Source of the DNA: an uncultured Pseudomonadota bacterium
Lineage (GTDB): Bacteria > Pseudomonadota > Alphaproteobacteria > Rs-D84
DNA length: 64,000 nucleotides
Direction of reading: 5' to 3'
NCBI GenBank assembly: GCA_900321105.1
Contig: OOHL01000004.1
Span: 10,995-74,994, forward strand
Shown here: piece after piece, positions 44,219 through 62,959 of the stretch
Position numbering within the stretch: the first letter of the stretch is position 1
Layout of the letters: every line of letters starts with the position of its first letter
The notes under the pieces: model-generated
The model's input: the letters and a program-made list of their open reading frames with translations, nothing else
Databases searched by the model: none
Told to the model about the DNA's origin: nothing
Position numbers and translations under genes: made by a program

Positions 44219-44225
44219 AATTTTA

Positions 44226-44234
44226 ATTATACCA
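44226..44234 (-). promoter_or_regulatory. Candidate extended -10 (TGgTATAAT) for P1
   Basis: The minus strand reads TGGTATAAT, ending 7 nt before ATG 44218, with no Shine-Dalgarno between them. Confidence 0.3.
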
Positions 44235-44250
44235 CAAATTAAGTTAAATG

Positions 44251-44259
44251 TGATATAAT
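44251..44259 (+). promoter_or_regulatory. Candidate extended -10 (TGaTATAAT) for the P2-P5 operon
   Basis: TGATATAAT lies 28 nt upstream of ATG 44287. AAAGAGAG acts as the RBS. Confidence 0.4.
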
Positions 44260-44286
44260 TCAATATATAAAAAACAAAAAGAGAGA

Positions 44287-45588
44287 ATGCATACACAAAA
44301 ATCTGTGATATCGCGACTGTTTACGCGTGCCCAAATTTTGTTTGGGGTGTTTGTTTTTTGTGCTTTTTTTACTGGTTCTGCCTATGCTGATATACTTGAT
44401 GCTTACAATCTGGCACCATTTGTTCCTTTGGTATTGGAAACAATGATGAACATCGCTACATCGCTTTATAATTTCTTTGTCGGCAAAGGCGACGGGATAA
44501 TATACATATTGATTTATGCATTTCTTGCATTTTACATCGGGTTATATCTGGTAAAAATGCATTTCCCGAAAAATTGGCTTTCATTCTTGGGCTTTTCGGA
44601 CGGTGGCGAAATGTGGGATGGCAAAGCAGACGTATGGAAGATTACAGATAATATTTTAAAACCTTGTTTGCGTGCAATTATTGCTGCTTTGTTCTTATTA
44701 CAAATAAAACCAGTATACGTGACAGAATGGTTGGTCAATCCGTTTTTAGAATTCGGATCAATTTATACTCAACAGATTTTAACAAACATAAATAATACCA
44801 GCATTGAAACAGCCGATGCCCCGGCGTGTCCTGCATCAATCGAAGAAGCTGGTTGGATTTCAAAACGCAGTTGCGATTTCTTGGTTAGACCGGTTTATAT
44901 AATTTCAAAAGAAAATAACAAGGTTATCAAATATGGATTTGATTTCCTTAAAACGGGTATTCGCGGCATGATGAATTTAATACCACACGGTGGCGAAGAT
45001 TTAATGAATATTATTACTGGAATATTACTATTGTTTGCATTCATATCTGCGAATGTGTTTATGGCACTGCTTATAATTCAAGGTATATTTGATTTCTGTT
45101 TATCGCTTATCATGTATCCATTTAACGTGCTGGCATGGGTCGCAAAAAAATCAGATAAATGGTTTGATATATTGCCTCCGTTCTCACAAATAATCGATGC
45201 ATTAAAAAATCTGATTATAACTATGATTGCATGTGCATTCATATTGTGTGTAAATATTGCGGTTGTTTGTGCATTATTTAATTGGTCGTCATCTGTATTT
45301 GTTGTTGCAGCCGGTGGGGTTTCAACATCCAACGTACCGTCTATTGCTAACACTGCTTCAAATTTTGGACAACATTCGATATTGTGGATATCTTCTTTGC
45401 TAACATTTTTCCTGATGCAAAATATATTCAAAATGACCCGCGAAAGACTAGATACATATACAAAAGGCACACCACGTAAAATATACAACAATGTGACAGG
45501 GGATGCAAAAACACTTTGGGGCAAAGTTAAATCAACACCAGATACAATAAAAACTATTTTGGATACGGCAAAAAAACTAAAGAAATAA
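44287..45588 (+). CDS. Polytopic membrane protein, paralog P2 (VirB6/TrbL-like, tentative)
   Basis: 433 aa with a signal peptide ending SAYA-D. It has a loop Cys pair (CPASIEEAGWISKRSC) and the Pro-helix LIMYPFNVLAWVAKKSDKWF. The tail reads GDAKTLWGKVK...KKLKK. Confidence 0.75.
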   Translation: MHTQKSVISRLFTRAQILFGVFVFCAFFTGSAYADILDAYNLAPFVPLVLETMMNIATSLYNFFVGKGDGIIYILIYAFLAFYIGLYLVKMHFPKNWLSFLGFSDGGEMWDGKADVWKITDNILKPCLRAIIAALFLLQIKPVYVTEWLVNPFLEFGSIYTQQILTNINNTSIETADAPACPASIEEAGWISKRSCDFLVRPVYIISKENNKVIKYGFDFLKTGIRGMMNLIPHGGEDLMNIITGILLLFAFISANVFMALLIIQGIFDFCLSLIMYPFNVLAWVAKKSDKWFDILPPFSQIIDALKNLIITMIACAFILCVNIAVVCALFNWSSSVFVVAAGGVSTSNVPSIANTASNFGQHSILWISSLLTFFLMQNIFKMTRERLDTYTKGTPRKIYNNVTGDAKTLWGKVKSTPDTIKTILDTAKKLKK

Positions 45589-45591
45589 ACA

Positions 45592-46794
45592 ATGCAAGAA
45601 TTGGCAAACTCTTTAATAGATTCAGGCACACAATGTTGGACATGTCCAGTGTTTGATAATCTGTTCGCCATTGTTTCAAACACCGCCGCAGCGGCATATC
45701 AAAGATTATGTTTTTTCAGTATTGTTATATTCTGTGTTTTATTCGCATTTTATGTTTTAAATGCCGTATGGCAAAATATTAAAAATGGCGCCAAAGATTC
45801 TTTGTTCGAAAAAACATTAAGGCCTGTACTGATTAAATCTTTGGTTGCTATCTCTATTTTAGGAATGGGGCTGATTATTCCGCGATTTATTTCAACGATT
45901 ACTTTTGAACCTGTTGCAATTATGACATTACAATATTCGCGTGCACTGCTGCCACCAGATTATGTAATCCCGGCATATCAAAATGCGATAAATCTTGGAG
46001 ATGGAGGATTTTTTAATCCGGCATTGCGCGATACAATTATACAAATTCTTGAAACCTCTGTTGCAAATTTCCAAGTATATATAAAAATTGGAATTGCCAT
46101 TATTGACAAGGCCTTTTCTATAGAAGCCCTTTTTGGTATTGGTTCTTTGATAAAACATATCATCATATGTTATATTGGAATCTTTTTAACATACAATTTT
46201 GTAAAATTATTTATAAAATATTCATTCTGTTTTATGGATATAATTGTCGCAATGGCAATGTTTGCGTTTTTCTTTCCATTGTCTGTAATATTATTTATAT
46301 TCCGTGGTGCAACCGATGCGCCAGGCTGGATGAAAGATTTGGGTAAAAATCTTGGTGGCGGACAAATCAAAAAACTGATAAATGCGATAGTCTCGGTTGC
46401 ATCAACAATTTTAACTTATACTATAATTATGCTGATTATCAAAGGATTCTTGGACGCCAATGGTGTTGACACAAATTCCGTACAAAATACATCCGAATCT
46501 ATATTTGATTTTAATTTGGAAAATTCCAGTGCAATGCAAATCACATTTGCTGGCGCTATCGTTCTGGTTTATGTAATAAATTATATTGCAGATCAAATTC
46601 CAAAAATCACTGAAAAAATATTGACCGTATTTAATGTGAAACAAGAAGATGCTATATCCAAAGAAATGGGCGAAAATACATTTCAATTAACAAAAAACAT
46701 AGCCAACACAGCCAAAGATTTAGCAAAAACAGTTATTAATCCGGATAAAAAAACTGATGAAAAATCAAAAGAAGAAAGCAAAGATAAAAAATGA
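45592..46794 (+). CDS. Polytopic membrane protein, paralog P3 (VirB6/TrbL-like, tentative), CxxC subtype
   Basis: 400 aa. CWTC at 45634-45645 lies near the N-terminus, with no signal peptide. It has the Pro-helix AFFFPLSVILFIFRG and the tail KKTDEKSKEESKDKK. Confidence 0.75.
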   Translation: MQELANSLIDSGTQCWTCPVFDNLFAIVSNTAAAAYQRLCFFSIVIFCVLFAFYVLNAVWQNIKNGAKDSLFEKTLRPVLIKSLVAISILGMGLIIPRFISTITFEPVAIMTLQYSRALLPPDYVIPAYQNAINLGDGGFFNPALRDTIIQILETSVANFQVYIKIGIAIIDKAFSIEALFGIGSLIKHIIICYIGIFLTYNFVKLFIKYSFCFMDIIVAMAMFAFFFPLSVILFIFRGATDAPGWMKDLGKNLGGGQIKKLINAIVSVASTILTYTIIMLIIKGFLDANGVDTNSVQNTSESIFDFNLENSSAMQITFAGAIVLVYVINYIADQIPKITEKILTVFNVKQEDAISKEMGENTFQLTKNIANTAKDLAKTVINPDKKTDEKSKEESKDKK

Positions 46795-48251
46795 TAAAAA
46801 AATGGCTTATTGAAAAAGGATTAAAATTTTTGATGGGCGCAATTGCGTTGGGTATCGGTATTTGGTATCTAAGTCATTCACTTGGTAGTGCATCTCTTTC
46901 TTACACCAGCGTAGATGCATTTATGAAGCAAATAGGTGCGACCGATGGGAACGCCACATCTGTTAATGGATGTTTCCTTTGTAAATACATGGGTGACTTA
47001 TTTGCGGTCTTGGGACGCGCAACAGAAATGTTTTGGAACGGCATCGTTCATAATTTATGGATATTGATGGCAATCGGTTTTGGGATATTTATCATATTCC
47101 ACACATTACAATTTTTCCGTGAACAATCATCATCAAAGGATATAAAAGATTTAACCGACAACGAAATCAAACTTGATTTCAAAAAATGGTTTGACAAGGT
47201 TTGGAAAACAGCCGCACGTATTATGGTTGCTGGCGCATTTATTGGGGTTCTAAATTGGACTGGAACAGCCTCGCTGAAAACAGTCACAAATCTTACTGTC
47301 ACACCAGTTTTGTACATCGGAACAAATCTATCAATGTTGGCAACTGGTGTAATAAGTGGTGCAAAATGTGAAATCCCAGACCAAACCGACAAAGCAGAAG
47401 ATATATTAACCCCTGTCTTGCATCCTTTTATGTGCGAAATGGGGAATTTAAATACAGTTATGTTAGCTGGTGCAGGTGGCGGATTTGCACTGATGAATTA
47501 TGCGTGGCTTGATTTAAATGATAATGTTGGCGGTGCATTTACCTGGCTGGCAGGACTGATGCTGGTAATAATGTTTTTAGTCATAGGATTTGATTTATTG
47601 TTCCAGATATTAAGCGTATTTTTTAAATTGATATTTATCATAATATTTATGCCGATTCTTATAGCAGCCGCTGCATTTGAACAAGTGTGGAAACTTGCTA
47701 AAAATTTATTAAATTCAGCCATAGACAAATTGGTAAATTCCGCGGTAGATATCATAAAAATCAGTCTTAAAATTATTATAACCTATGCCATTGTTTATTT
47801 TGCTGCCGATCAGTATTTTCCTGGACCGGCTGATGGATTTACCAACATATTGCCCCCATTGGTTTCTAAAATAAGCCCATCAAACATGGACGCAAAAACA
47901 ATGTCTGTTATGAATGCATTTTCAAATTGTGAAAAAGTTGCACTGATTGACGGCAAAATGGACAAAGAAAAATTCACACAATGTTTCAAGACTCAGAAAA
48001 ACATAGTTGAACAAAGATATCCTGGTGCATTTGATTTTATGGACGATGGATTTGAATTCTTGATGTTTATGATTGGTGTATTCTTCCTATATTTTTGGGT
48101 TATATCACCAAAGATTGAAAAACTGCTTGGCAAAGAAAGCACCGAAACATTTGATTATGGTCAATGGCTTAAAGATGCTGGAAAGAAAGCATATAATGCC
48201 CCAACAGATATTTATATGAAAGTTCGCGAAAAAATGAAAGAAGGAAAATAA
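46791..48251 (+). CDS. Polytopic membrane protein, paralog P4 (VirB6/TrbL-like, tentative), CxxC subtype
   Basis: 486 aa, overlapping P3 by ATGA. CFLC lies at 46971-46982. It has a loop Cys pair (CEIPDQ...FMC) and the Pro-helix IIFMPILIAAAAF. Confidence 0.75.
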   Translation: MIKKWLIEKGLKFLMGAIALGIGIWYLSHSLGSASLSYTSVDAFMKQIGATDGNATSVNGCFLCKYMGDLFAVLGRATEMFWNGIVHNLWILMAIGFGIFIIFHTLQFFREQSSSKDIKDLTDNEIKLDFKKWFDKVWKTAARIMVAGAFIGVLNWTGTASLKTVTNLTVTPVLYIGTNLSMLATGVISGAKCEIPDQTDKAEDILTPVLHPFMCEMGNLNTVMLAGAGGGFALMNYAWLDLNDNVGGAFTWLAGLMLVIMFLVIGFDLLFQILSVFFKLIFIIIFMPILIAAAAFEQVWKLAKNLLNSAIDKLVNSAVDIIKISLKIIITYAIVYFAADQYFPGPADGFTNILPPLVSKISPSNMDAKTMSVMNAFSNCEKVALIDGKMDKEKFTQCFKTQKNIVEQRYPGAFDFMDDGFEFLMFMIGVFFLYFWVISPKIEKLLGKESTETFDYGQWLKDAGKKAYNAPTDIYMKVREKMKEGK

Positions 48252-48252
48252 A

Positions 48253-49542
48253 ATGCAGATTCGTAAATTTTTAAAATTATTTTTGATTTGCATTTGTTGC
48301 GCAACTGCTTTCATTGGTTATTCATATGCAGCAGGAAACATTCCACATGGTGATATCGGTGAATATGGCAATTGGATAACATCTGATAACATGGAAAAAT
48401 ATAACGAAATTTTGTCTAGTGATGCAAAAAATTTCCAACAAGATTTCCAAACAAATCTGCATTCAACAAATTTTGTTCCAATTGAAGTAAAAATCGGATT
48501 GGTGTTTATGAAAGCGTTATCATCAATTGATTATGTTCTACAAACATCTCTGGTTCGATTTGTTATATGGTTTTTATTTATAATGTATGCATTTTGGGTT
48601 GGATTGACTGCATATAAACTAATTCGTGAATCATCTGATTATAAAACCGTTTTATATAATGTTTTTATCAAAGGGATCACCATTGTCGCATGGATAATAA
48701 TTTTAAATTATGGTCCCGCAAAAATATTTACTATGATAATAACGCCTATTATCTCACTGGGTGTTTATTTGTCTGATTTTATATTAGATGCTGTTGCCCA
48801 AACATATAATGTGAATATTCCAGACACATGTGCAACAATACATCAATATGTTAATTCAAATGTACCAGATAAATTGTTAATAAACCCGGATGCCGCGGCT
48901 AATATAATGTGTTTACCGGCAAGGATTTCTGTATATTTTTATCATGCAACCGCATCTGCATTTGAATGGATGGTTAACGGATTTGGTAACAGTGCAACAA
49001 TGGTGGTAGTTGGTGCTGTATGTGTTATTATGTTTATTGGATGCATATTCAAATATGCTTTCATGACATTGGGTGTTGTTGCAGATTTGTTCTTAACTTT
49101 GTTGATGTTACCATTTACCGCTCTTGCAGAATCAATGCCTGAAATAAAAGAAGACAATTATGCCGGACAAATATTTTCTGGATTATTAAAAGTATTTAAT
49201 GCACAAGATTATAAATTATCGGGCATAATATCTAAATTTATAAACGCAACAATATATTTTGTATCTTTAGCAATTATAATTGCAATATGTGCGGCATTAC
49301 TAACAAATATTGTATCGATAAATAACAATGACGAATATCATGTTGGTTCTGCAATGACAATGATATTATGTGGCGCATTGGTATTCTATTTGGCTGGTCA
49401 GGCTGAAAAACTGGCTGAAGACCTTGGTGGAAAAATTGATAATTCATTTGGGAAACAATTACAAGGTGATACAAAAACACTTTGGGGCGATGTAAAAAAG
49501 CTTGGTTCTATGGCATATAAAGATTGGTTAAAGAAAAAATAA
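48253..49542 (+). CDS. Polytopic membrane protein, paralog P5 (VirB6/TrbL-like, tentative)
   Basis: 429 aa with a signal peptide ending SYAA-G. It has a loop Cys pair (CATIHQ...IMC) and the Pro-helix LLMLPFTALAES. The tail reads GDTKTLWGDVKK...KKK, like P2. Confidence 0.75.
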   Translation: MQIRKFLKLFLICICCATAFIGYSYAAGNIPHGDIGEYGNWITSDNMEKYNEILSSDAKNFQQDFQTNLHSTNFVPIEVKIGLVFMKALSSIDYVLQTSLVRFVIWFLFIMYAFWVGLTAYKLIRESSDYKTVLYNVFIKGITIVAWIIILNYGPAKIFTMIITPIISLGVYLSDFILDAVAQTYNVNIPDTCATIHQYVNSNVPDKLLINPDAAANIMCLPARISVYFYHATASAFEWMVNGFGNSATMVVVGAVCVIMFIGCIFKYAFMTLGVVADLFLTLLMLPFTALAESMPEIKEDNYAGQIFSGLLKVFNAQDYKLSGIISKFINATIYFVSLAIIIAICAALLTNIVSINNNDEYHVGSAMTMILCGALVFYLAGQAEKLAEDLGGKIDNSFGKQLQGDTKTLWGDVKKLGSMAYKDWLKKK

Positions 49543-52383: not shown

Positions 52384-54669
52384 CTAACTGTCACTTGCTA
52401 TACAAACATTACTGCTGTTTGCAGTATATCCAGATGGGCACGATGTCAAGCATGAAGAATTATATAAATAATAGCCAGTTGGACACGATGAAACACATGT
52501 AGAACCACTGACTAAATAACCTTCTTTGCAAACACATCTGTCGTTGACATAACGATCTTGGTCATCCCCCGCATCTGCCCGATCTGTCAAAGTAAAATAG
52601 GAATTATCAGGACAAAGCAATGATTGATAAAAGATTTCCGAAATACCACTTATCAATTCTGGTGCTTGCAATCTTGATAATGCATCGACCTGTGCCGGAG
52701 ACAATATTGCAGAATACGCTTCTTCATCACTATCGGTCTGCAAATATTCCTTCTTTATTTCCAACATCTTGTCGCCCATATCTTTATCATATGCAAACAC
52801 AGCATAACCACATGTCAGGGCTACATTATAACACGCACCTGTCATAACTTTATATATATTGTTCACAGATGCTGATGTTGTCCATGATGTTATTTGACTA
52901 TTTTGTTGGTTATAACAATCCTGAATATCGGCCATACAGGTTGATGCATAATCAGAAATGATTCTTGATTGTGCGGCCTTGATATTTACCATTGCGCGTT
53001 GAATATAATTTATAACAACTTCGTTGTATGGGTTATAGTTAGAATTTTTACCAGATTGTATATAAGTATAATCTTGACATTTGTCCAAAACGGCACGACA
53101 AAGCCCACCATCTTTGACACTGTTACCTGTTCCAATTTTTTGCATTAAATAATTAACGATACACGCACCATCGTGTTCTGGACACGTTGTATTGCCAGAC
53201 GATGCTTTTATAAAATCAGCTGTAATGGATGTATTATTATAACCGGTCATAAAATCAGTTATATTTGCAATATTTTTACCCAACACAACTTCGCCGTTTT
53301 CGTCAATATATCTTTTGGTTGGGTCCAAACATTTTACATAATTATCGCCACAAACCATATCATCCAGCATACACTTTTCAAGCGCACCAACACAGCCTTT
53401 GATATCATATTCATTTTTATTTTGCAGAACCGCCAAACGCGCCTTTTGCAACATTAAATTTGCACTGCGCACATTGTTTTTCAACGTATCATTTAATTTA
53501 ACCAGACCCTGTTCATACGCTACACAGTCTTTATCAATTGCCAAATCATAGTTTCCAGAAATTTGATCTTCGGTTCCACCTGCATCCTTGCAACGATTAA
53601 GAACTGTTTTACAACGTTTTTTAGCCTCTGTATAAAGTGCCTTGCCACGTTTAGATGAAATATCATTGCCGCCTGAATTGAACATATCAAGCGAGAACAA
53701 ATCCGAAGAATCAGATGAAAAATCAAAATCCATATCCAACAAAGAATCTGTCGATGAAGACGCTGTCAATGTTGTAGAAGAAGTCGGATCTTTTATCATA
53801 TCGGCAATATCATCCAACAAAGAACGTGTTTGCGTATTATCTTTGGTTTTACCCATTTCAACTTCTGCTTCGGTTGCAGACATAATCGCACGAATTTCAT
53901 CCGCAGACAAACCAACATAACGGATACGTTGTGCAACATCATTTAATTCAACATTTGCATCTTCGACTGCTTTTTGAGCCTTGGCATATTTAGCCAAATT
54001 CGCAGAACAAGAACATCTTTTTTGATTTGTATCCACAACCGCACAGAATTGATCCATACATTCATTGTATTGTTGCTGACATGTACTGTTTAAATCGGAT
54101 GTTTTTTCCAGAATATCTTTTGCCTCTGCCAAAGATTCTGCCGTTATTGTCTTTTGTTGTTTCTGAGAACCAAATATAGATGCACGCGATTGAATACCAC
54201 GAACCTGTTCATCAATATTAGAACCTGTTTGAATGCCTGTGTTTCCGATTGTTGCACGACCACCAACTTCCGCAGTAGATGCACGCAAAGTTATACCTGC
54301 ACGACGAACAGCCGCAGTATTGTTAATGCTGGCTGCTTCGGTACGTGCACTGCGCCCGACAGTATTTACAGCATCACTTAAAGTTTGACGTGTTCCGGTT
54401 TTGCGATTATTTACAGACCGTGAAACAACATTTGTTGATGGTTTGGTATTTGTTGTTGAAACAGGTGCCGTACGCGATACCGTGCGTGAAATCGTCGTTG
54501 CACGTTCATCGGTGCGCGCACTGCGATTTTTAACAGTTGTTTCCACCTTTTGTTCGACATCTTCAACTGAATTTTTTGTTGGAATTGCGCGGGATATAGA
54601 ACCATCCGCCGCAAAAGCATTTGCGACACACAACAGCCCGGCGAAAAGATATAACGAAATCTTTCTCAT
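52384..54669 (-). CDS. Large cysteine-rich secreted protein, paralog A (761 aa)
   Basis: It has a signal peptide (LLCVANAFA-A) and a ~150-aa basic R/S/T/N-rich low-complexity region. A Cys-rich body follows, opening with CQQQYNECMDQFC...KRCSC. I count 29 Cys, with nine C-x6-C units. The C-terminus CVCKEGYLVSGSTCVSSCPTGYYLYNSSCLTSCPSGYTANSSNVC is furin/EGF-like. Confidence 0.8.
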   Translation of the reverse strand: MRKISLYLFAGLLCVANAFAADGSISRAIPTKNSVEDVEQKVETTVKNRSARTDERATTISRTVSRTAPVSTTNTKPSTNVVSRSVNNRKTGTRQTLSDAVNTVGRSARTEAASINNTAAVRRAGITLRASTAEVGGRATIGNTGIQTGSNIDEQVRGIQSRASIFGSQKQQKTITAESLAEAKDILEKTSDLNSTCQQQYNECMDQFCAVVDTNQKRCSCSANLAKYAKAQKAVEDANVELNDVAQRIRYVGLSADEIRAIMSATEAEVEMGKTKDNTQTRSLLDDIADMIKDPTSSTTLTASSSTDSLLDMDFDFSSDSSDLFSLDMFNSGGNDISSKRGKALYTEAKKRCKTVLNRCKDAGGTEDQISGNYDLAIDKDCVAYEQGLVKLNDTLKNNVRSANLMLQKARLAVLQNKNEYDIKGCVGALEKCMLDDMVCGDNYVKCLDPTKRYIDENGEVVLGKNIANITDFMTGYNNTSITADFIKASSGNTTCPEHDGACIVNYLMQKIGTGNSVKDGGLCRAVLDKCQDYTYIQSGKNSNYNPYNEVVINYIQRAMVNIKAAQSRIISDYASTCMADIQDCYNQQNSQITSWTTSASVNNIYKVMTGACYNVALTCGYAVFAYDKDMGDKMLEIKKEYLQTDSDEEAYSAILSPAQVDALSRLQAPELISGISEIFYQSLLCPDNSYFTLTDRADAGDDQDRYVNDRCVCKEGYLVSGSTCVSSCPTGYYLYNSSCLTSCPSGYTANSSNVCIASDS

Positions 54670-54784
54670 TTCCTTAAGGATAATTATACCATAAAACCCC
54701 AGATAAAAAAAGAGAAATTCAGATAAAAAGGATTAATTGTTCGGAATTTAAAATTCTTGGAATAAGATTCGTCAAAAGTTCAAT

Positions 54785-54868
54785 GTCATGCTGAGCGAAG
54801 CATGAGCATCCATAACAAACCTGTCGCCATGATGGATTCCCGCGCTTGCACTGCTCGCTCGGAATGAC
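54785..54868. repeat. GC-rich palindromic (REP/MITE-like) element
   Basis: GTCATGCTGAGCGAAGCA ... TGCTCGCTCGGAATGAC are imperfect terminal inverted repeats. A nested ATCCAT/ATGGAT hairpin sits inside. It lies between the paralog A start and the rpmA terminator. Confidence 0.6.
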
Positions 54869-54881
54869 ATAGAGTATTTAC

Positions 54882-54909
54882 AAAAAAAACACCGCCAGAT
54901 TTGGCGGTG
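54882..54909 (-). terminator. Rho-independent terminator of rplU-rpmA
   Basis: The minus strand reads CACCGCC-AAATCT-GGCGGTG-TTTTTTTT. Confidence 0.8.
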
Positions 54910-54930
54910 CAGATAACAAAATAAATTTTA

Positions 54931-55176
54931 TTATTTTGATTCGGTTTCTGGAACAACAGAAACAGTTTTTCTGTCGCCATTGCCACGTTTAAATGTGACA
55001 ATACCTGCGATTTTAGCAAACAAAGTATGATCTTTGCCCATACCAACGTTTGCGCCTGGATGAACAGATGTTCCACGTTGACGAATGATGATGTTTCCTG
55101 GGATAACGTGAGATCCACCACTTTTCTTCACACCCAATCTGCGTCCGGCTGAATCGCCCGCTTTCTTATGTGCCAT
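54931..55176 (-). CDS. rpmA: 50S ribosomal protein L27 (81 aa, shortened N-terminal segment)
   Basis: [21 protein letters not shown]...[26 protein letters not shown]. Confidence 0.9.
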
Positions 55177-55207
55177 AATTTAACTCCTTAGGTTTTGGGT
55201 CTGTCCA

Positions 55208-55507
55208 TTAGGCCTTGATTGATTTGATTTTCAAAACAGTGATAAACTGACGATGACCGGCAGTTCTGCGATAGTTTTGACGACGTTTTTTCTTGAACAC
55301 TAAAACTTTGTCTGTGCGTTTTTGTTCGACAACTTCTGCAACAACAGATGCGCCATCGACAAAAGGTGTTCCAACTTTGTCACCAACCATTAAAACCTGG
55401 TCGAAAGTGACAGAACCTGTGGCGTCCAGTTTTTCAACTTTGATAATATCGCCCTCAGATACACGATATTGTTTTCCACCGGTTTGAAAGATTGCAATGT
55501 TAGCCAT
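55208..55507 (-). CDS. rplU: 50S ribosomal protein L21
   Basis: [27 protein letters not shown]... Confidence 0.9.
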
Positions 55508-55629
55508 TATACTTTCTCTTTTGTTAATTTGTTAAACTGAAATTTATGCTTTCGCACAAAATTTTATGCAAATTATACACACAAAACACCAAAAGTCAAC
55601 AATTTTGTCGAAACTTTTATGCATTTTAA

Positions 55630-55735
55630 GTTCCCCTCCGGTGGATGGGTGGCACGAAGTGACGGGGTGGTCTTTAGTATTTGATTTTTTAAAGACCACC
55701 TCCCCCTTGCGGGTACTCCTCCAACGGAGGAGAAC
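55630..55735. repeat. GC-rich palindromic (REP/MITE-like) element in the rplU upstream region
   Basis: The outer inverted repeat is GTTCCCCTCCGGTGG / CCAACGGAGGAGAAC, matching 13 of 15. The inner long stem is GGGGTGGTCTTTA (55664-55676) / TAAAGACCACCTCCCC (55690-55705). There is also a local hairpin, CTCCTCC-AAC-GGAGGAG. Confidence 0.6.
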
Positions 55736-55758
55736 TTTAATCTCTGGAATAAAACCAT

Positions 55759-55779
55759 AAAAAAACCGCCGAAGCGGTT
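55759..55779 (-). terminator. Rho-independent terminator after Cys-rich paralog B
   Basis: The minus strand reads AACCGC-TTCG-GCGGTT-TTTTTT. Confidence 0.75.
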
Positions 55780-55803
55780 ATGAATAATACATTTTTATTG
55801 CTA

Positions 55804-58254
55804 TTAATATCTTCTGTTACGTGCAGCCTCGTCATCCTTTATCTGTCGGCGTAAATTATTTATACCTGCAGTATAATGATTCAAACAATCGTCACAATTA
55901 GTATTGTCTACTGTATCACATAACTTTTTATCTTTTTCTTTTGCAACCTGTCTTGTATCAGACAACAAAGCATTCATTATTTTAATATCTTTCTCTATTT
56001 GCGATTTATCATCTTTATTATTGCATTTTTTACCTTCTTTTGTCCTGTCCCATAAAACACTATAATTTTCGCTAAAACATTCTACAGCACTTGCATCATC
56101 TTTACCGGCACAATTACGATATTGGGATGATTTTGAACTGCTGCTGCCAAGTAAACCAGATGAAGAAGACGAATCATCATCTTTTGCGCCGGCGGCTTGC
56201 AATTGCGCAGTCAACGTAGCCTTTTCAAGTTGGGTCTTTAAACGACGCAGCGTCGCAGATAAATATTCATATTGTTTATACATCTGTTGTGAAATAACCG
56301 TTGTCTTCAGCGCCAGCATTTCTTTGATTTCACCCAGTTTTGTATTCATATGCTCATTATATTCTTTAAGTCCTTGATCATACGCAACAACACCGATCTT
56401 CCAGCTTGCTTTACCATCATCTGATATTAATTGGCTACAAACTCTTCCGTTTGATTTATAACCTTCCTTACACCATTTCACTATTGTACAGTTACCTTGA
56501 CTATCCTTTTCTGCCCAAAGCACATTTGGATCTGTTTTTTGTAATTCGTCCGTGCAATCATTTGGGAATCTTTTCTTAATTTCATCCGATGCACCAGATT
56601 TTCCAACATTATATGGATGTATATCGCAAATCGCATAGGTTGGATTTATATACCCACAATCAGAATCTTCTTTTGTATAATCACGTTTTCCTGCTTCTAT
56701 CTTTTCAACACATAACGCGGAACCTTTTACAGGGACAACCTTGCTTAACATAGCCTTTTCCAAAATATCTTTGTTATCATCTGCATCGCAATAATCCAAC
56801 GGTTTTACACCAGAACGCAATTCCTTGCTTGGTTCTTTTTGGTGCAACCATGTATCCAGTTTATCAATATCAACCAACCCGGCACCGTTTTTATTCTTGG
56901 TTCTGCGTCTGAACAAAGCAGATGCATCCAGCGCACCCGATGCGCACGCAACAACTGTTGTGTTACCATTTGATGTGTCACCTTCCGCATCAATCCAACC
57001 TTCATAAACTTCGTTATCATTTGATAAAATTTTCAATAGCGTACAAGGACGACAATTTGTCCCGCTTTTTTTGTAACTACACTTATTTATACAAGAATTA
57101 TATGCACTAGTATTACCGTCAACGCACCCATCTTGATTACAACTGTTCTTTTCCCAACACATATCCACACATTCAGAATCAGGTTTAAAACCACCTGTAC
57201 ACACCTGTGGTATACCTTTATAACTGCTGTCTATATCGGTATATTCTATTTTACCGCCGCTGACACGAGGGCACATATATTGTCCCCAACGATTACATGA
57301 ATTATTTAACATCATATAAATATCAGACAAATTAACACCAACCAATATTGCCAATTCCAATGCATCATATGTTTTGTTAATTACTTCATCGTATGGGTCC
57401 AGGAATTCAGTTGCCAATTCACGCCATTTTTTCACACGTTTTGGACCGGTGCAATTGTTCCCGCGTGCATCACAACCCGCGTATTCAAATGCAGTATTCA
57501 TTACCGTTTTCAAAGTTTTCATTTGAACTTCTGCATTTTCAAGTTCGGTCATAACCTGGCCAGTAATTTTCTGACGTTCCAAAACATCAGTTGAAATACC
57601 ACGATTTATCGCATCTTGTTGATATGCGGATATGCCAGCCTCGTTTTCCTTGGCCGCATCAGTTGCCGCAGATTTTACACTTTCCAATGCCGCCGCATTT
57701 TGCGCGGCCTGTTGTGCCAATGCGTTTTGTAATTGTGCCGCAGATTCAGCCTGTTGCTGGGCCATTTGTTGTTGCATCTGCTGCATTTGATATTGCATTT
57801 CCTGCATTTGTTGTTGCGATTGTTGTGCCGCTGCGGCCGCCGCAGCCTGTTGTGCCGCCGCGTTTTGTTCATTTATTTTTGCCGTGGACGATGCAACCAA
57901 TTGCGCAGACATATATTGCACCAAATCATTGCCATATTGTTTACATGTATCATTAGATTGAACACATCCAGCCACAATCGCCGACGCAATCGACATATCC
58001 GAACATCCACCATTTGCACATTTTGGTTGTGCACAGCGCAAAACAACCGCATTACAGTTTCCAAAATCAACCTTGGCCGCAGTATTTGTATCATAACGAC
58101 CATTTGTCATTGATGCCCACTGATTATTATTCGCATTTGACGGATTAAAAGCGGTTAAATTAGACCCAGATGTTGTCGCAACAGTCCCCGCCGCATTTGC
58201 ACAAAGCGGCGCAAAACAAAGCATCATTGTTAAAATGCGCGATAAATTTTTCAT
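55804..58254 (-). CDS. Large cysteine-rich secreted protein, paralog B (816 aa from ATG 58254)
   Basis: It has a signal peptide (MMLCFAPLCANA-A). The Cys-rich body opens with CNAVVLRCAQPKCANGGC. A Gln/Ala-rich coiled-coil-like tract follows, then many Cys knots, including CKEGYKSNGRVC. I count 36 Cys. Confidence 0.8.
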   Translation of the reverse strand: MKNLSRILTMMLCFAPLCANAAGTVATTSGSNLTAFNPSNANNNQWASMTNGRYDTNTAAKVDFGNCNAVVLRCAQPKCANGGCSDMSIASAIVAGCVQSNDTCKQYGNDLVQYMSAQLVASSTAKINEQNAAAQQAAAAAAAQQSQQQMQEMQYQMQQMQQQMAQQQAESAAQLQNALAQQAAQNAAALESVKSAATDAAKENEAGISAYQQDAINRGISTDVLERQKITGQVMTELENAEVQMKTLKTVMNTAFEYAGCDARGNNCTGPKRVKKWRELATEFLDPYDEVINKTYDALELAILVGVNLSDIYMMLNNSCNRWGQYMCPRVSGGKIEYTDIDSSYKGIPQVCTGGFKPDSECVDMCWEKNSCNQDGCVDGNTSAYNSCINKCSYKKSGTNCRPCTLLKILSNDNEVYEGWIDAEGDTSNGNTTVVACASGALDASALFRRRTKNKNGAGLVDIDKLDTWLHQKEPSKELRSGVKPLDYCDADDNKDILEKAMLSKVVPVKGSALCVEKIEAGKRDYTKEDSDCGYINPTYAICDIHPYNVGKSGASDEIKKRFPNDCTDELQKTDPNVLWAEKDSQGNCTIVKWCKEGYKSNGRVCSQLISDDGKASWKIGVVAYDQGLKEYNEHMNTKLGEIKEMLALKTTVISQQMYKQYEYLSATLRRLKTQLEKATLTAQLQAAGAKDDDSSSSSGLLGSSSSKSSQYRNCAGKDDASAVECFSENYSVLWDRTKEGKKCNNKDDKSQIEKDIKIMNALLSDTRQVAKEKDKKLCDTVDNTNCDDCLNHYTAGINNLRRQIKDDEAARNRRY

Positions 58255-58319
58255 CTCTCTTATGCACAATTTTATCATAAAAAAAGATTGGTGTAAAGGG
58301 TGAAGATATATTTGTTTGC

Positions 58320-58347
58320 AAAAAAAACACCGCCCAAATGGGCGGTT
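58320..58347 (-). terminator. Rho-independent terminator after Cys-rich paralog C
   Basis: The minus strand reads CCGCCC-ATTT-GGGCGG-TGTTTTTTT. Confidence 0.75.
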
Positions 58348-58353
58348 GTTTTC

Positions 58354-60996
58354 TTATTCTTCTGTTTCTTCTGTTGTTGATAATTTTACGCATAAACCAT
58401 CAGATAATCCATAACCAGATTTACAGCTTACTATTTCACAAGCACCGTTATTAGCATAACCAGCTGCGGCATTCAACGAATCTAACATAGCAGAAGAACA
58501 TCTGTTTCTTACGCACTGATTATCAACCAGGCTGTAATCTGATTTACATTGTGTTATATCACAAGAACCGTTGTTAGCATAACCGGCTGTGGCGTTCAAT
58601 GAATTCAACAAAGAACTTGAACAATTGTTTCTTACACAACGATTATTTGCTAAACTGTAATCGGCAATACAACTTGTTATTATACAATCATTTCCTTGTA
58701 TATAACCGGTCGCTGCATTTAATGTAGTCAACAAATCATCACTGCAAGATGTTGTACCAGAACTTGTACCATTGCCAATAGTCCCTGTTCCAGAATCTGT
58801 ACTATTTGTATCCCCTTTCTTCCAGGTTCTTAAACAATATGTCGTTTCTGTATCCGTACTATTTTCTGCACAACCTAATGCACGTTCAAGACATTGTTCG
58901 CGCACCGCAGCAGATTTAACACTTAACTTGCCTACAGAATTCCAGTTGTCTAAACTATCGTCAGCTGTTTGACCTGTACCATACAAAATTTCACTAATTG
59001 TCACAACATTACGACAAGTGTTTTCAGAATAATCATTTGAATATATACAAGAATTACTGTCCGCTTTATCTACGACCGCCACCAATTGAGTTTGTAATGG
59101 TGAACAAATCATTGTTTCATAACAATGCGGAACCTGGGAAACCTGGCTGCAATATGCCTTGATACGTGCAGTTGTCCATTTGTCTTCGTCTTCATATTCA
59201 TCATAACAATCCCAGATTTCAGATATACATTCATTGAAATTATCAATTGCAGCCGTTGCATCAGCCAAAATTGTTGCTTCTTCTTCCTGTTTGAATTCAA
59301 GACGTTTTTGTTGCAATGCCTGTTCTGCCGCAATCTTTTGATAATTGATGTTTTGTGCAGTCTGCTTTAATGCAGTACCATATGTATCACACGCGGCATT
59401 TGCATCCAATAAATATTTTTGCATAATGGACCGACGGGCATCTGCAACCGGACCACGCAATGATGCATATGGGTCTGTCGATGTCGTTGTTGTTCCTAAG
59501 CGGCTTGTTGTGGTTGTGGTTGTGGTTGTAGTATAACCGAAACAAGATGCTGTTGATTTCACAGAAGAGCTTGAATTACGTTCATTCAATTTTACATCAC
59601 CTTGGTTATCGCCACTGGTCACAACCGAAATATAACTGTTATAATTAAACGGACATTCTGATGTTGCACCATTCCCACATCTTGAATGTGTCTTGCCTTC
59701 GGAATCCGTCACATTAACAGGTGTTCCACATGCTTCATAGATTCCATTAAAGCACGAATCAAGTACGCGTCCGCAAACATTGTTGTGTGCATATTCAAAC
59801 AATTTGTATCCCCATTTGTTTGCCAAAGAATCCAACGATGAAGTATCGCTATCCGACAAACTGGAAACACCGTTCATATTGTTAACAACATTTGCAATAT
59901 TTGTGTACTTTGTTATCAGATTACCATCATCTGTTTCATATTGTTTTGCCAAGTCTTTTGCATCAGCCCATGCCTTTAATTGCGCCAAAATATCAGATGA
60001 TGAACCATCAATATTTTTAATATCAAAACCAAAATCGTTATCCGAACAATAACTTGGCATACCAGATGTTTGTAATGCATTATCACTGAAAGATAAATGT
60101 TGTTCATACCATTGTGCATCTGTCATTTTTTTACCAATAACATTTTCTTTGTATGATACACAATTCATAACTTTTTCAGCATCAGTCAAAGAAAATGCAG
60201 ATGCCAAATCATTCCCCCTGCCCTTGGTTGCAATCAAAAGCGATAATTGACCGGACAATTTAATCAATTCTTCGTTTGCAGCCTCTAAAGCTTCTTCTGC
60301 ATCCAAGAAATTGGTTGCACGCCCAGCGCAAGAACAACGCCCTTTGGTATCGCTTCTTGCTGTACAGATTTCATCCATACATGTATAATAAGACGCCATA
60401 CAATTTGAATATGCATCCGCAGATATCAAACCAGTTGTTGAATCAATAATGTTTGAATACGAACCAGTATATAAACTGCTGGCCAGATAAGAATAAGATG
60501 TTGATGTAGACGCACGTGATCCCGCCATTATTGAACCGGTTGCACTGACACGTGATGGTGTTGCGCTTGTCGCGGTTCTTGCACGAACCGCACGGTTTGA
60601 ACGTGTCGCGCTTTGTCCACGTGATGTCACACCACGCGTTGTTGTCGTTTTTGCGACATTAACGTTACGATTTGTTGTTCCACGTTGCGAAACCGTTCTG
60701 GACGATGCATTACCGCGAGCAACTGTCGCACGGGATACAGCATTTGTAGGTCTTACAGTTGCACGCGAAACCGTCGAACGCGCAACCGTCGAACGCGCAA
60801 CACTTGCGTTATTATTTGCGGTTGCACGCGGACTGGCACGCCCTGTTCTCTGTGGCAAAGTATTTGCCGGCGCAATTGGGTCCGCAAACACCGAACGCAT
60901 TGATATAAATGTAGAACAAACAAAAAATGCCGCAGCAAGCAGGAACACCGTTCCCATCGCATTTTTGAACGAATTTGCATTTATACGAAAATTCAT
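58354..60996 (-). CDS. Large cysteine-rich secreted protein, paralog C (880 aa from ATG 60996)
   Basis: AGGAGA is the RBS, followed by a signal peptide (...SMRSVFA-D). A ~130-aa basic R/S/T/A/N repeat region follows. The Cys-rich body opens with CMASYYTCMDEIC...GRCSC. The protein also has a poly-Thr tract and three C-terminal 41-aa four-Cys repeats. I count 37 Cys. The track ORF's upstream extension to 61143 is probably not translated. Confidence 0.8.
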   Translation of the reverse strand: MNFRINANSFKNAMGTVFLLAAAFFVCSTFISMRSVFADPIAPANTLPQRTGRASPRATANNNASVARSTVARSTVSRATVRPTNAVSRATVARGNASSRTVSQRGTTNRNVNVAKTTTTRGVTSRGQSATRSNRAVRARTATSATPSRVSATGSIMAGSRASTSTSYSYLASSLYTGSYSNIIDSTTGLISADAYSNCMASYYTCMDEICTARSDTKGRCSCAGRATNFLDAEEALEAANEELIKLSGQLSLLIATKGRGNDLASAFSLTDAEKVMNCVSYKENVIGKKMTDAQWYEQHLSFSDNALQTSGMPSYCSDNDFGFDIKNIDGSSSDILAQLKAWADAKDLAKQYETDDGNLITKYTNIANVVNNMNGVSSLSDSDTSSLDSLANKWGYKLFEYAHNNVCGRVLDSCFNGIYEACGTPVNVTDSEGKTHSRCGNGATSECPFNYNSYISVVTSGDNQGDVKLNERNSSSSVKSTASCFGYTTTTTTTTTSRLGTTTTSTDPYASLRGPVADARRSIMQKYLLDANAACDTYGTALKQTAQNINYQKIAAEQALQQKRLEFKQEEEATILADATAAIDNFNECISEIWDCYDEYEDEDKWTTARIKAYCSQVSQVPHCYETMICSPLQTQLVAVVDKADSNSCIYSNDYSENTCRNVVTISEILYGTGQTADDSLDNWNSVGKLSVKSAAVREQCLERALGCAENSTDTETTYCLRTWKKGDTNSTDSGTGTIGNGTSSGTTSCSDDLLTTLNAATGYIQGNDCIITSCIADYSLANNRCVRNNCSSSLLNSLNATAGYANNGSCDITQCKSDYSLVDNQCVRNRCSSAMLDSLNAAAGYANNGACEIVSCKSGYGLSDGLCVKLSTTEETEE
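58381..58746 (-). repeat. Three tandem ~123-bp coding repeats (41-aa four-Cys modules) at the 3' end of paralog C
   Basis: The modules are CSDDLLTTLNAATGYIQGNDCIITSCIADYSLANNRCVRNN, CSSSLLNSLNATAGYANNGSCDITQCKSDYSLVDNQCVRNR and CSSAMLDSLNAAAGYANNGACEIVSCKSGYGLSDGLCVKL. Confidence 0.85.
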
Positions 60997-61196
60997 AATT
61001 TTCTCCTGTATATTCACAATACGCAAAAACACCCTGATTTCAGGCAATTTTGCGCAAAATCTTCCTTCACTTATTGAAATTATAACATTTTTAGTTAATT
61101 CTGTAAACAATAAAAATAAAGCATGCGGTATAAAATCCGCCATATTTTATTGGACATAAAAATGTAAAATACTATAATCGCAAAAAAGAGAAAAAA

Positions 61197-61751
61197 ATGA
61201 AAAAAATTTCAATCTTTTTATTATCACTGATATTAACTTTGCCAACATTTGCAAAAAACAATGTTATGTTTGGCGAAAAAATTAATTCAATCACACTTTA
61301 TGGCGCACAATCAACCGGTTCGGGCAGCCTGTTAAAACTAATTTATCCGGGCGTTTGGGATTTTCACCCACAAACATTCGCAATGTTTCAATACAGCCAG
61401 CCCGTGCAATTTTTTCGCCTGGATTCGCGTTTAAATTTTAATGTCGCACAAAATTTTGCTTATAATTCCAGCCAAGGTTTATCGTTCTTTGCAATGTCTA
61501 TATCGCTGGACAGTGCACTTTTGCAATACAAAGATTGGTATATGGGAATTGGTATTGGTCCGTATATGCGCGACAATATGGATTATTGGGTTGAAAGCCG
61601 TTTGGTATTTGGTGAAAAGGTTTTTGTTGGCAAAAGCATAAACGAAAATTGGAATATCGAATTGTTTACAATACATTTTTCAAATGGAAACTTTACAAAT
61701 AAAAACGAAGGCTTTAATTTCGTCGGATTCGGCGTTGGGTATAAATTCTAG
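61197..61751 (+). CDS. Outer-membrane beta-barrel, PagL-like lipid A deacylase / acyloxyacyl hydrolase family (tentative)
   Basis: It has a signal peptide and alternating beta-strand pattern. The HFSNG motif (TIHFSNGNF) resembles the PagL His/Ser site as I recall it. The C-terminus is GFGVGYKF. Confidence 0.55.
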   Translation: MKKISIFLLSLILTLPTFAKNNVMFGEKINSITLYGAQSTGSGSLLKLIYPGVWDFHPQTFAMFQYSQPVQFFRLDSRLNFNVAQNFAYNSSQGLSFFAMSISLDSALLQYKDWYMGIGIGPYMRDNMDYWVESRLVFGEKVFVGKSINENWNIELFTIHFSNGNFTNKNEGFNFVGFGVGYKF

Positions 61752-61990
61752 GCGTTTAAGAATACGTACCTGTAGCAATCAAAATAAAAATAATACATAA
61801 TGATATTGTTCAGAACACAGCAAGCCCAAAGATTTTACATCGACGGTGACTTGAGGTAACTGGACCCAGCAATACCCCACATAACTGTGGAACAGGGTGT
61901 TGCAAAAAACCGCCCTTGCTTCTACCTCAGTTTCGTAATTACGCGAAAAAGGGGACAAACGGGCGGTTTTATTTTTTAATTTTTTTAAAA

Positions 61991-62365
61991 TTAACAACCG
62001 TGATTACATGCTGGTTTTACACGTGTATATGTACCTGCTGGAACATATTGAACAACCGGTTTGTAAGTTTGAACTGTTTCGCGAACAAAATATTCACGTT
62101 TAACAACTTCTTGTTTTTCTTCGCAACCACAACCGCATGTGTTATATGCTTTGACTGGTTTTGGTGCAGGTTGTTTAACAGTGCGAACAACACCGTTATC
62201 GCATTCAACAATTGTTATAACAGCACGTTTATCAGCCGATGCACGATCCAGCGCAGCGCGCATTTCGCCTTCATCACAAGAAATAACATCTTCACGATAA
62301 ACATCTGCAACTGCAATTGTGGAAAACATTGACACAATCAAAGACAAAAGAACAAATTTTTTCAT
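61991..62365 (-). CDS. Small secreted cysteine-containing protein (124 aa)
   Basis: Signal peptide (SMFSTIAVA-D) and seven Cys, including CGCGC and a C-terminal CNHGC. Confidence 0.6.
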   Translation of the reverse strand: MKKFVLLSLIVSMFSTIAVADVYREDVISCDEGEMRAALDRASADKRAVITIVECDNGVVRTVKQPAPKPVKAYNTCGCGCEEKQEVVKREYFVRETVQTYKPVVQYVPAGTYTRVKPACNHGC

Positions 62366-62488
62366 TTTGGTATACCTTTATTTTGTTCTCTCTCAGCATT
62401 CATCATAGACTATATTTTCTTGTTTGCAAGATTTTTCGGTATTTATACCAATTGTTTTTGCTTGTTGCACAATAGTAAAATATTATTT

Positions 62489-62959
62489 ATGGAAAAACAT
62501 AATTACAAAAGCGCAATTATATTGGGCATGCATGACGCAATCGTATCTTTGACCGGATTGATTGCCGGACTTTTCTTTGCGTTCACAGATGCAAATATAA
62601 TCATTATAACATGTATTATTTCATCAATCACTGCGTCACTTTCCATGGGGGCGGCAAATTATTTGGCGGTAAAATCCAACGGTGACAAACAGGCAATCAT
62701 TGCGGCATTGTGGACATTTTTTGCATATATGATGACTTGTATTTTATTAATATCGCCCTTTTTTATATTTTCTGATTCTGACATTGCTCTGACATTTGTA
62801 TTTATAATGGCGATATTTATAATATTGTTATTCAATCTGATTTTTTATCATAAAAAATCGTTTTTTAAAAACTTTTTTGAAATGTTATCTGTTTGCACAA
62901 TTGTTTCAATTGCTGCATTTACAATTGGTGAAATTGCAAACAAAATTTTTGGAATATAA
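62489..62959 (+). CDS. VIT1/CCC1-family (iron/manganese) transporter-like membrane protein
   Basis: ILGMHDAIVSLTGLIAGL and SMGAANYLAVKS resemble the VIT family. Start placed at ATG 62489. Confidence 0.5.
   Translation: MEKHNYKSAIILGMHDAIVSLTGLIAGLFFAFTDANIIIITCIISSITASLSMGAANYLAVKSNGDKQAIIAALWTFFAYMMTCILLISPFFIFSDSDIALTFVFIMAIFIILLFNLIFYHKKSFFKNFFEMLSVCTIVSIAAFTIGEIANKIFGI

Follow-up and report, generated by a model that had tools for sequence, protein, structure and literature searches.

The subject of this study is a group of three minus-strand genes, A, B and C, in a stretch of 64,000 nucleotides (the window) from an uncultured, Candidatus Enterousia-like alphaproteobacterium of the order Rs-D84 (GenBank assembly GCA_900321105.1, contig OOHL01000004.1, positions 10,995 to 74,994). 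Our analyses favour, with a probability of about 0.42, the view that their products are exported proteins of the envelope or cell surface, stabilised by disulfides and equipped with variable binding modules, in a gut bacterium that depends on partner cells. Uncharacterised families of bacterial extracytoplasmic disulfide-rich proteins are a kind already known; what is new here is the fold of the A-type core, its pattern of cysteines separated by six residues (C-x6-C) and its candidate genomic partner, an array of five membrane proteins (P1-P5). A preliminary description of the locus had presented A, B and C as giant paralogs built from C-x6-C units and accompanied by a small cysteine-rich secreted protein, S. 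Most of that observation holds, and for A it lies well above chance, with the claims of paralogy and of a repeated unit overstated. The interpretation offered with it is reasonable and finds its support chiefly in disulfide bonding and lineage specificity.

All four open reading frames (ORFs) were found on the minus strand as previously delimited (Table 1), with Sec-like signal peptides evident on direct reading of their N-termini, and those of A, B and C are intact. In the order A, B, C and S they code for 29, 36, 37 and 7 cysteines, with 1, 2, 1 and 0 in the signal peptide (taken as the N-terminal hydrophobic segment) and 28, 34, 36 and 7 in the mature chain. Cysteine makes up 3.8-4.3% of mature A, B and C, compared with 1.02% in the 44 other ORFs of the window. 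The signatures quoted earlier, CQQQYNECMDQFC...KRCSC in A, CMASYYTCMDEIC...GRCSC in C and CNAVVLRCAQPKCANGGC in B, are exact, as are the mature counts of the three large proteins and the nine copies of C-x6-C in A. The recurrence of this motif, described for the whole set, stands far above chance in A, where 0.8-1.0 copies are expected and none of 5,000 shuffles reaches nine, but it is marginal in C (four observed against ~1.2 expected, p 0.02-0.04 by shuffling) and not significant in B (three against 1.1, p ~0.1). Among 30 sampled homologs of each protein, B keeps all three of its pairs invariant and C three out of four. In a 105-sequence alignment of A-type proteins, cysteines 197, 204, 209, 219, 221, 353, 360, 382, 426, 433, 440, 447, 524 and 531 are invariant and 578, 585, 613 and 620 are 98-99% conserved, giving seven conserved C-x6-C pairs (197/204, 353/360, 426/433, 440/447, 524/531, 578/585 and 613/620). 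These pairs do not make up a repeated unit: the profile of A aligned to itself yields no significant off-diagonal match and thus no significant internal repeat. Nor are the proteins giant; at 761-880 residues they are merely large.

The paralogy proposed for the three genes applies to two of them. A and C share an N-terminal domain of ~90 residues, recognised by BLASTP (E 2e-7) and by hhalign (98%, E 1.6e-13; 99%, E 2e-18 with a deeper profile), and both carry a similar basic leader, while the remainder of C differs. B has no detectable homology to A or C, either in sequence comparison or in hhalign runs with whole profiles and with profiles restricted to the N-domain; the candidate status of B as a distant paralog was rejected on these hhalign results, negative both ways. 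The locus thus appears to comprise two related genes and one unrelated cysteine-rich gene. An A-type protein can be recognised by the signature C-x6-C-M-D-x-[FY]-C-x9-C-x-C followed through a core of ~426 residues; of its marks (signature, 18 core cysteines and three-part build), A has all, C only the N-terminal signature domain and B none.

The core of A was modelled with AlphaFold2 (AF2). Using residues 170-761 and the 105-sequence alignment, the model reached a predicted local distance difference test score (pLDDT) of 84.8 and a predicted template-modelling score (pTM) of 0.67; a shallow alignment of 34 sequences at 60-80% identity gave an unusable result (pLDDT 56.8). The modelled core consists of long helices, two of them of 45-50 residues, and the model further contains a low-confidence acidic linker (~298-323), a short beta hairpin and a C-terminal beta ladder. 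Foldseek searches of the PDB and BFVD returned no match at E <= 1e-3, and the A core is confidently predicted as an all-alpha fold without a solved relative in these libraries. The leader preceding it scored a pLDDT below 50 in the run on the shallow alignment and carries the invariant motifs RRAGITLRASTAEVGGRA and QTGSNIDE despite its predicted disorder. The leaders of A and C carry net positive charge (+10 and +19) and the bodies are acidic (-24 and -36, respectively).

Comparison among homologs suggests that the cysteines form intramolecular disulfides. The mature count is even in 109 of 114 homologs of A, 116 of 118 of B and 116 of 117 of C, figures that come from related sequences and are therefore not a clean binomial test. 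Among full-length homologs the counts range from 22 to 66 with evenness kept, and parity held while the number of cysteines changes is what obligatory pairing predicts. Furthermore, C496 and C503 occur in ~25% of the relatives in the 105-sequence alignment and are gained or lost together (phi 0.95), so they appear to pair with each other. The disulfide stabilisation put forward in the preliminary description thereby receives strong, if indirect, support, from even parity in 96-99% of homologs and from this joint gain and loss, and numerous disulfides almost certainly stabilise A, B and C.

The same description had C-x6-C pairs stapling helical hairpins, an idea with which the data agree only in part. 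In five of the seven conserved pairs a modelled helix holds one cysteine or both, three pairs (197/204, 426/433 and 578/585) lying wholly within helices, and C524/C531 flank a short helix. By standard helix geometry, cysteines seven positions apart on a continuous helix are separated by ~10 Å, too far to bond each other or to chelate one ion, and must therefore bond to other segments. In the AF2 secondary structure, cysteines 426/433, 447, 578/585 and 620 are in helices, with 440 and 613 just before helices, so that 426/433 with 440/447 and 578/585 with 613/620 have, in the model, the layout expected of doubly stapled antiparallel helices. In contrast, the invariant C524/C531 cannot pair with C496/C503, present in only ~25% of relatives, and as the latter seem self-contained, not every C-x6-C pair is a cross-helix staple.

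Were the cysteines instead to bind metals or to serve as a thiol redox buffer, they would suit an anoxic, reducing habitat, and our phmmer search with approximate DsbA and DsbB queries recovered no Dsb system; S, moreover, has a CGCGC cluster and lies beside a VIT1 metal transporter gene. We nonetheless judge this explanation most improbable, since helix positions seven residues and ~10 Å apart cannot hold one ion, the lists of invariant residues contain no conserved His clusters, the parity is even and not a multiple of three or four, and the tail of A resembles classical disulfide ladders.

The constancy of the core is matched by an extreme variability of what follows it. In 225 A-type relatives the leader has a median length of 193 residues (sd 40) and the core 426 (sd 24), while the tail ranges from 27 to 1,696 residues and from 0 to 102 cysteines. 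Some relatives (among P0410, P0412, P0419 and P0368-P0372) reach 1,700-2,338 residues, with up to 121 cysteines, all of the extra length lying in the C-terminal tail. Flg_new (Listeria-Bacteroides) repeats are found in the tails of some long A-type relatives, and precomputed annotations place them on two C homologs too; the tandem repeats at the C-terminus of C are missing from most of its orthologs, which cover ~83% of the query. Such a combination, in which a constant scaffold ends distally in a hypervariable part bearing repeats, is typical of binding proteins on display.

The same build, constant at the N-terminal side and variable at the C-terminal side, together with the multi-copy character of the family, would also fit secreted polymorphic toxins or effectors, in which a conserved delivery part carries variable toxic domains. 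This possibility appears very unlikely. The tails consist of cysteine ladders and adhesin-type repeats with no recognisable toxin domain, no immunity-type gene recognisable by Pfam lies beside A, B or C (their flanks being dnaQ, rpmA/rplU and pagL), and no secretion-system marker or feature of a rearrangement hotspot was seen in the window. Leads of PADLOC or toxin type were likewise absent, although no search of the PADLOC library was made.

For the A family, the favoured reading of displayed binding proteins translates into the following arrangement, which in the C family would apply at the N-terminus. A Sec signal peptide would deliver the chain to the periplasm, where the basic, Arg-rich, disordered leader might fasten it either to a partner protein or to some anionic component of the envelope. 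The constant long-helix bundle of ~426 residues, locked by conserved cysteines seven residues apart on one helix face, would act as a protease-resistant stalk or scaffold in the protease-rich gut, and the hypervariable tail, with its cysteine ladders or repeats, would confer binding specificity for an attachment target such as host mucus or cells or other microbes. B would be an unrelated cysteine-rich, coiled-coil-type protein, encoded at the same locus in closer relatives and probably belonging to the same envelope layer. The disulfide chemistry, location at or beyond the outer membrane, the adhesive role of the tails and anchoring by the leader are the parts of this arrangement that we infer.

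Several results weigh against this reading. Beyond the Sec signal, A, B and C show no localisation feature (beta-barrel, autotransporter, lipobox or known sorting motif), no secretion system turned up in the window, and no path by which they would pass the outer membrane was identified. In diderm cells, proteins exported by Sec remain periplasmic by default. A Dsb-type oxidase was not found in the ORFs of the window and of 160 related loci (3.09 Mb), searched by phmmer with approximate E. coli DsbA and DsbB sequences. Dsb is not mentioned in the genomic account of the lineage either, according to which there is no respiratory chain (PMC12306168) that could drive a DsbB-type system. A biochemical question follows, namely how 14-60 disulfides per protein would be formed in an anaerobe that has neither a respiratory chain nor an evident Dsb system.

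The absence of any outer-membrane targeting feature beside the Sec signals speaks for a second interpretation, in which inter- and intramolecular disulfides join A, B and C into a periplasmic structural lattice that stiffens the envelope from beneath the outer membrane, as proposed for chlamydial OmcB, with no display at the surface. Long helices and coiled-coil-like stretches would suit such a lattice, as would the very high conservation of the core, and peptidoglycan or the phosphates of lipid A would be possible ligands of the basic leaders. We consider it unlikely, because the window codes for a normal peptidoglycan machinery (PBP1, MraY, FtsW, MurG and a DacA-like protein), making a substitute wall unneeded, because even parity suggests that each cysteine is satisfied within its own chain, and because tails of up to 1,696 residues with Flg_new repeats are hard to explain if buried.

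The chlamydial OmcB/OmcA pair, to which the preliminary description had likened the locus, holds as an analogy only. As in that system, a large, exported, cysteine-dense protein, here of presumed envelope location, occurs in a host-dependent bacterium with a reduced genome, a small cysteine-rich secreted protein is encoded nearby, and, as in OmcB, a basic N-terminal segment precedes the cysteine-rich body. In OmcB this segment binds glycosaminoglycans, and the protein is beta-rich; in contrast, the A core is all-alpha in the AF2 model. Scans of the four proteins against Pfam-A (E up to 1) and NCBIfam gave no match to Chlam_OMP6 (PF03504), DUF11 or Chlam_OMP3. Unlike the lipoprotein OmcA, S has no lipobox, its N-terminus reading MKKFVLLSLIVSMFSTIAVA/DV with no cysteine before residue 30, and it is not tied to A, B and C. 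Even parity would fit intramolecular pairing, as opposed to an intermolecular net, and genes for peptidoglycan synthesis are present in the window.

Other known systems resemble the A family in single respects. The fixed-spacing cysteine pairs on one helix face recall the twin CX9C and CX3C proteins (CHCH) of the mitochondrial intermembrane space, and the modelled layout of 426/433 with 440/447 and of 578/585 with 613/620 would allow two parallel disulfides between antiparallel helices, as in those proteins. The spacing in A is, however, six and not three or nine, Pfam CHCH gives no match, A-type proteins are bacterial, extracytoplasmic and of 760-2,300 residues in contrast to eukaryotic proteins of ~10 kDa, and 496/503 seem self-paired, with 524/531 unable to pair with them. 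The Hcp proteins of Helicobacter, built of Sel1-like repeats in which C-x7-C pairs cross-link helices, are likewise secreted, alpha-helical proteins of a gut-associated organism with regularly spaced cysteine pairs, but A has no Sel1 (PF08238) match and no internal repeat, and differs in size and domain build.

The last ~50-80 residues of A are predicted to form a beta disulfide ladder, which Foldseek aligned weakly, over 44-80 columns and in the tail only, with furin-like repeats of EGFR/ErbB and R-spondin (E 0.7-3, best 0.71; probability up to 0.99), and both A and B show recurring motifs of the type CKEGY..G..C. The variant-specific surface proteins (VSPs) of Giardia, too, are rich in cysteine and belong to an organism of the gut lumen. 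Pfam returned no Furin-like, GF_recep_IV or VSP match, and the resemblance is confined to the variable tail, not the core. Finally, TraN of the F plasmid is a large cysteine-rich exported protein for cell-cell contact encoded near polytopic inner-membrane proteins of TraG_N/VirB6 type. The likeness to A, also a large cysteine-rich exported protein near polytopic membrane proteins, is no more than a conceptual lead: Pfam and NCBIfam, scanned at E up to 10, gave no TraN, TraG_N or TrbL/VirB6 match, A and P4 have no match in 72,556 plasmids, and the window holds no other type IV secretion genes.

The membrane proteins in question, P1-P5, gave no match in Pfam, NCBIfam or PDB sequences (profile A4), and P4 none by tblastn against the plasmids. 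In 53-56 orthologs, P1, P3 and P4 have an invariant CxxC (C-[WF]-x-C) just before a transmembrane segment, which the positive-inside rule would place on the periplasmic side, and P1, P2, P4 and P5 have a conserved cysteine pair in a large loop. The order C-(B)-rplU-rpmA-A-dnaQ-uvrD-P5..P1 is kept in most of 80 loci; in 53 of the 80, no more than 10 kb separates the array from A. The array also stays close to an A-type gene where the order has changed: P2-P5 are codirectional with A at a gap of ~100 bp in three loci (L061, L071 and L072), the array adjoins A in opposite orientation in L035 and lies ~8 kb away in L043 and L053, and in L104, L110 and L116 an A-like paralog is found ~3 kb from it. 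Synteny alone, which survives four gene orders, suggests the functional link with the A family that the preliminary description had supposed, possibly of a redox nature. Rickettsiales carry five tandem rvhB6 genes, which is the basis on which a VirB6-like identity was considered for P1-P5; a relation to VirB6, TrbL or TraG_N was rejected, with no Pfam or NCBIfam match at E up to 10 and no plasmid match for P4.

Overlapping with the favoured reading is the proposal that P1-P5 form a new machine spanning the envelope, for contact-dependent uptake, secretion or oxidative folding, with A, B and C as its extracytoplasmic subunits or its dedicated substrates. The proximity of the array to A and A-like genes just described, in the common and in the alternative gene orders, speaks for it, as do the CxxC motifs and loop cysteine pairs and the lack of standard transporters in the lineage (PMC12306168). 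On the other hand, small genomes keep synteny by inertia, dnaQ and uvrD lie between A and the array in the window, the second clade of A-like paralogs (see below) is near P genes in only five of 80 loci, and the lack of a match to VirB6/TrbL, TraG_N, DsbB or VKOR models in Pfam and NCBIfam means that no mechanism can be assigned; we regard the proposal as doubtful. A bolder combination of both ideas, also improbable at present, would see A, B, C and the five P paralogs as an undescribed Rs-D84 envelope apparatus, in which a dedicated membrane platform takes care of the folding or oxidation, the anchoring and the display of helical stalks stapled by disulfides and fitted with exchangeable binding tips, allowing a non-respiring gut bacterium of below 1 Mb to attach to partner cells and draw metabolites from them. 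If true, the 'twin C-x6-C' core would represent a new class of bacterial extracytoplasmic fold, and P1-P5 a new disulfide or assembly machinery working without a respiratory chain.

Homologs of A, B and C come from metagenome-assembled genomes (MAGs) of gut and rumen, labelled Alphaproteobacteria bacterium, Candidatus Enterousia spp. or 'uncultured Rickettsiales'. More than 1,020 were found for A, at 60-78% identity, and 1,283 for B; clustered at 90% identity, the homologs of each of the three proteins form more than 1,000 groups, every one unnamed or annotated as 'hypothetical'. At least 217 species-representative genomes have A-type genes, with matches over essentially the full length. An exhaustive search with the profile of A retrieved 719 representatives at 50% clustering, 246 with E <= 1e-30, and every such A-type representative with an intact N-terminus has the signature. 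The same genomes contain, elsewhere, a second clade of full-length A-like paralogs, some tandemly duplicated. Loci of this clade (L081-L160, for instance L099, L101 and L109) code for the N-terminus MKR..LPAFAEVAP and the signature CKAQY..CMDNFC, and some share contigs with A loci (L037/L091, L075/L106 and L054/L143).

The A-type family is therefore multi-copy in very small (sub-1-Mb) genomes and is not pseudogenised. As far as seen, the families are restricted to gut alphaproteobacterial MAGs of the Enterousia/Rs-D84 type, in agreement with the earlier suggestion of a lineage-specific, uncharacterised family, and the genes are intact across hundreds of species. A, B, C and S belong to no family in Pfam-A (hmmscan, E up to 1) or NCBIfam, with only low-complexity noise (TFIIA; CPL1-like at E 0.023 in C, below its cut-off), and profiles A1-A3 found no match among PDB sequences, so that no characterised domain family emerged from these three collections. 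The accession PF27023.1 is precomputed on two of 120 listed A homologs (P0006 and P0044); it could not be identified and, on so few homologs, was excluded as the core domain. Searches of the literature on Enterousia, Rs-D84 and cysteine-rich surface proteins did not find a description of the A, B or C family. Tblastn of A gave no match against the 72,556 plasmids or a phage collection, and a mobile-element origin accordingly finds no support.

Genomes of the order Rs-D84 are mostly below 1 Mb, without tricarboxylic acid cycle, respiratory chain, flagella or standard transporters, and the order has been proposed to consist of obligate symbionts or parasites dependent on other cells (PMC12306168). 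Rs-D84 and Enterousia are widespread in the guts of ruminants, horses, chickens, mice and humans. To spend ~7.4 kb here, and further paralogs elsewhere, on conserved, exported, cysteine-rich proteins is costly, and as the libraries searched contain nothing structurally related to one of them, they are prime candidates for the interface of the organism with its partner or host. Should the link with P1-P5 be borne out, the locus would amount to a new envelope system and provide handles (antigens, targets for fluorescence in situ hybridisation plus antibody) for finding that partner.

Table 1. Coordinates of the genes, domains and signals at the A/B/C locus and of other features in the window.
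Feature	Position	Strand	Description
Gene A	52384..54669	-	761 aa; signal peptide 1-20, basic low-complexity leader 21-190, predicted all-alpha Cys core 191-620, variable tail 621-761
A leader, residues 21-190	54100..54609	-	Arg/Thr/Ser/Ala-rich, net +10, predicted disordered
A core, residues 191-620	52810..54099	-	18 invariant or near-invariant Cys, seven conserved C-x6-C pairs
Domain shared by A and C (~90 aa), A copy, residues 191-281	53827..54099	-	C-x6-C-x4-C-x9-C-x-C and next helix
Cys ladder in A tail, residues 686-756	52402..52614	-	Beta-rich, furin-like-resembling; per-column Cys occupancy 19-80%
Gene B	55804..58254	-	816 aa, 34 mature Cys; longer ORF reaches 58278; signal peptide, conserved 6-Cys N-domain, Gln/Ala-rich helical stretch (~110-250), central Cys-rich region, C-terminal helical region
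Gene C	58354..60996	-	880 aa, 36 mature Cys; longer ORF reaches 61143; signal peptide or anchor, very basic leader 39-190 (net +19), A-shared domain, C-specific Cys-rich body
Shared domain, C copy, residues 193-288	60133..60420	-	Delimited by hhalign
Three tandem 41-aa repeats, C-terminus of C	58378..58746	-	Four Cys each, C-x19-C-x4-C-x10-C
Gene S	61991..62365	-	124-aa secreted protein, 7 Cys
S and VIT1-family gene	61991-62959		Divergently transcribed
Promoter-like site of C	61079..61107	-	TTTACA, 17 nt, TG-TATAAT
Promoter-like site of B	58269..58297	-	Overlaps upstream ATG at 58278
Terminator-like hairpin and T-run	58329..58346	-	Directly 3' of C stop codon
Terminator-like hairpin and T-run	55764..55779	-	Directly 3' of B stop codon
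G+C-rich hairpin and T-run	54889-54910	-	3' of rpmA
rplU	55208-55507	-	Between B and A; named from translation
rpmA	54931-55176	-	Between B and A; named from translation
P1-P5 array	42926..49542	P1 -, P2-P5 +	Five paralogous polytopic membrane proteins, 400-486 aa, ~20% identical
PagL-type lipid A 3-O-deacylase	61197-61751	opposite to C and S	Between C and S
Further ORFs without Pfam family (seven)	8384-9175, 16722-17390, 20486-21112, 23730-24467, 34448-35686, 42348-42860, 63282-63902		170-412 aa; 34448-35686 with weak OmpA-like C-terminus only (E 0.03)

The starts of B and C are probably those at 58254 and 60996 chosen in the preliminary description. The upstream ATG of B is overlapped by its promoter-like box, which favours the downstream start, and for C both the promoter-like box and an AGGAG box 7 nt upstream of the ATG at 60996 fall within the longer ORF; such elements inside the longer ORFs make the shorter starts the better ones. 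Public gene calls follow the longest ORFs (824 residues for B, 929 for C). With a TGGTATAAT box upstream of A as well, and given their own promoter-like, ribosome-binding and terminator elements, A, B and C look like separate, well-signalled transcription units, the hairpins behind B and C being G+C-rich like that of rpmA. The rplU and rpmA genes share the strand of A and B, with a terminator of their own. More distant relatives lack B at the rplU/rpmA position and have C directly before rplU.

The window is otherwise an ordinary chromosome segment with housekeeping genes, among them those for replication, repair and DNA uptake (UvrD, DnaQ, GyrA and ComEC), for translation and nucleotide synthesis (a ValRS-type tRNA synthetase and CTP synthase), for peptidoglycan synthesis and division (MurG, FtsW, MraY, PBP1 and the DacA-like protein) and for efflux and lipid A modification (AcrB, an outer-membrane efflux protein of the OEP family and PagL). 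The PagL-type gene, found beside C in 32 of 80 loci, indicates that the organism makes and remodels lipopolysaccharide.

The inclusion of S in the cluster was not borne out. It has no C-x6-C and an odd number of cysteines, of which C30, C55, C120 and C124 are conserved in 18 orthologs, the CGCGC cluster being variable (0 to 5 cysteines), and its link to A, B and C is doubtful. Its conserved partner is the adjoining, divergently transcribed gene of the VIT1 family (Fe/Mn transporter-like), and S may have a role connected with metals instead of belonging to the A/B/C set.

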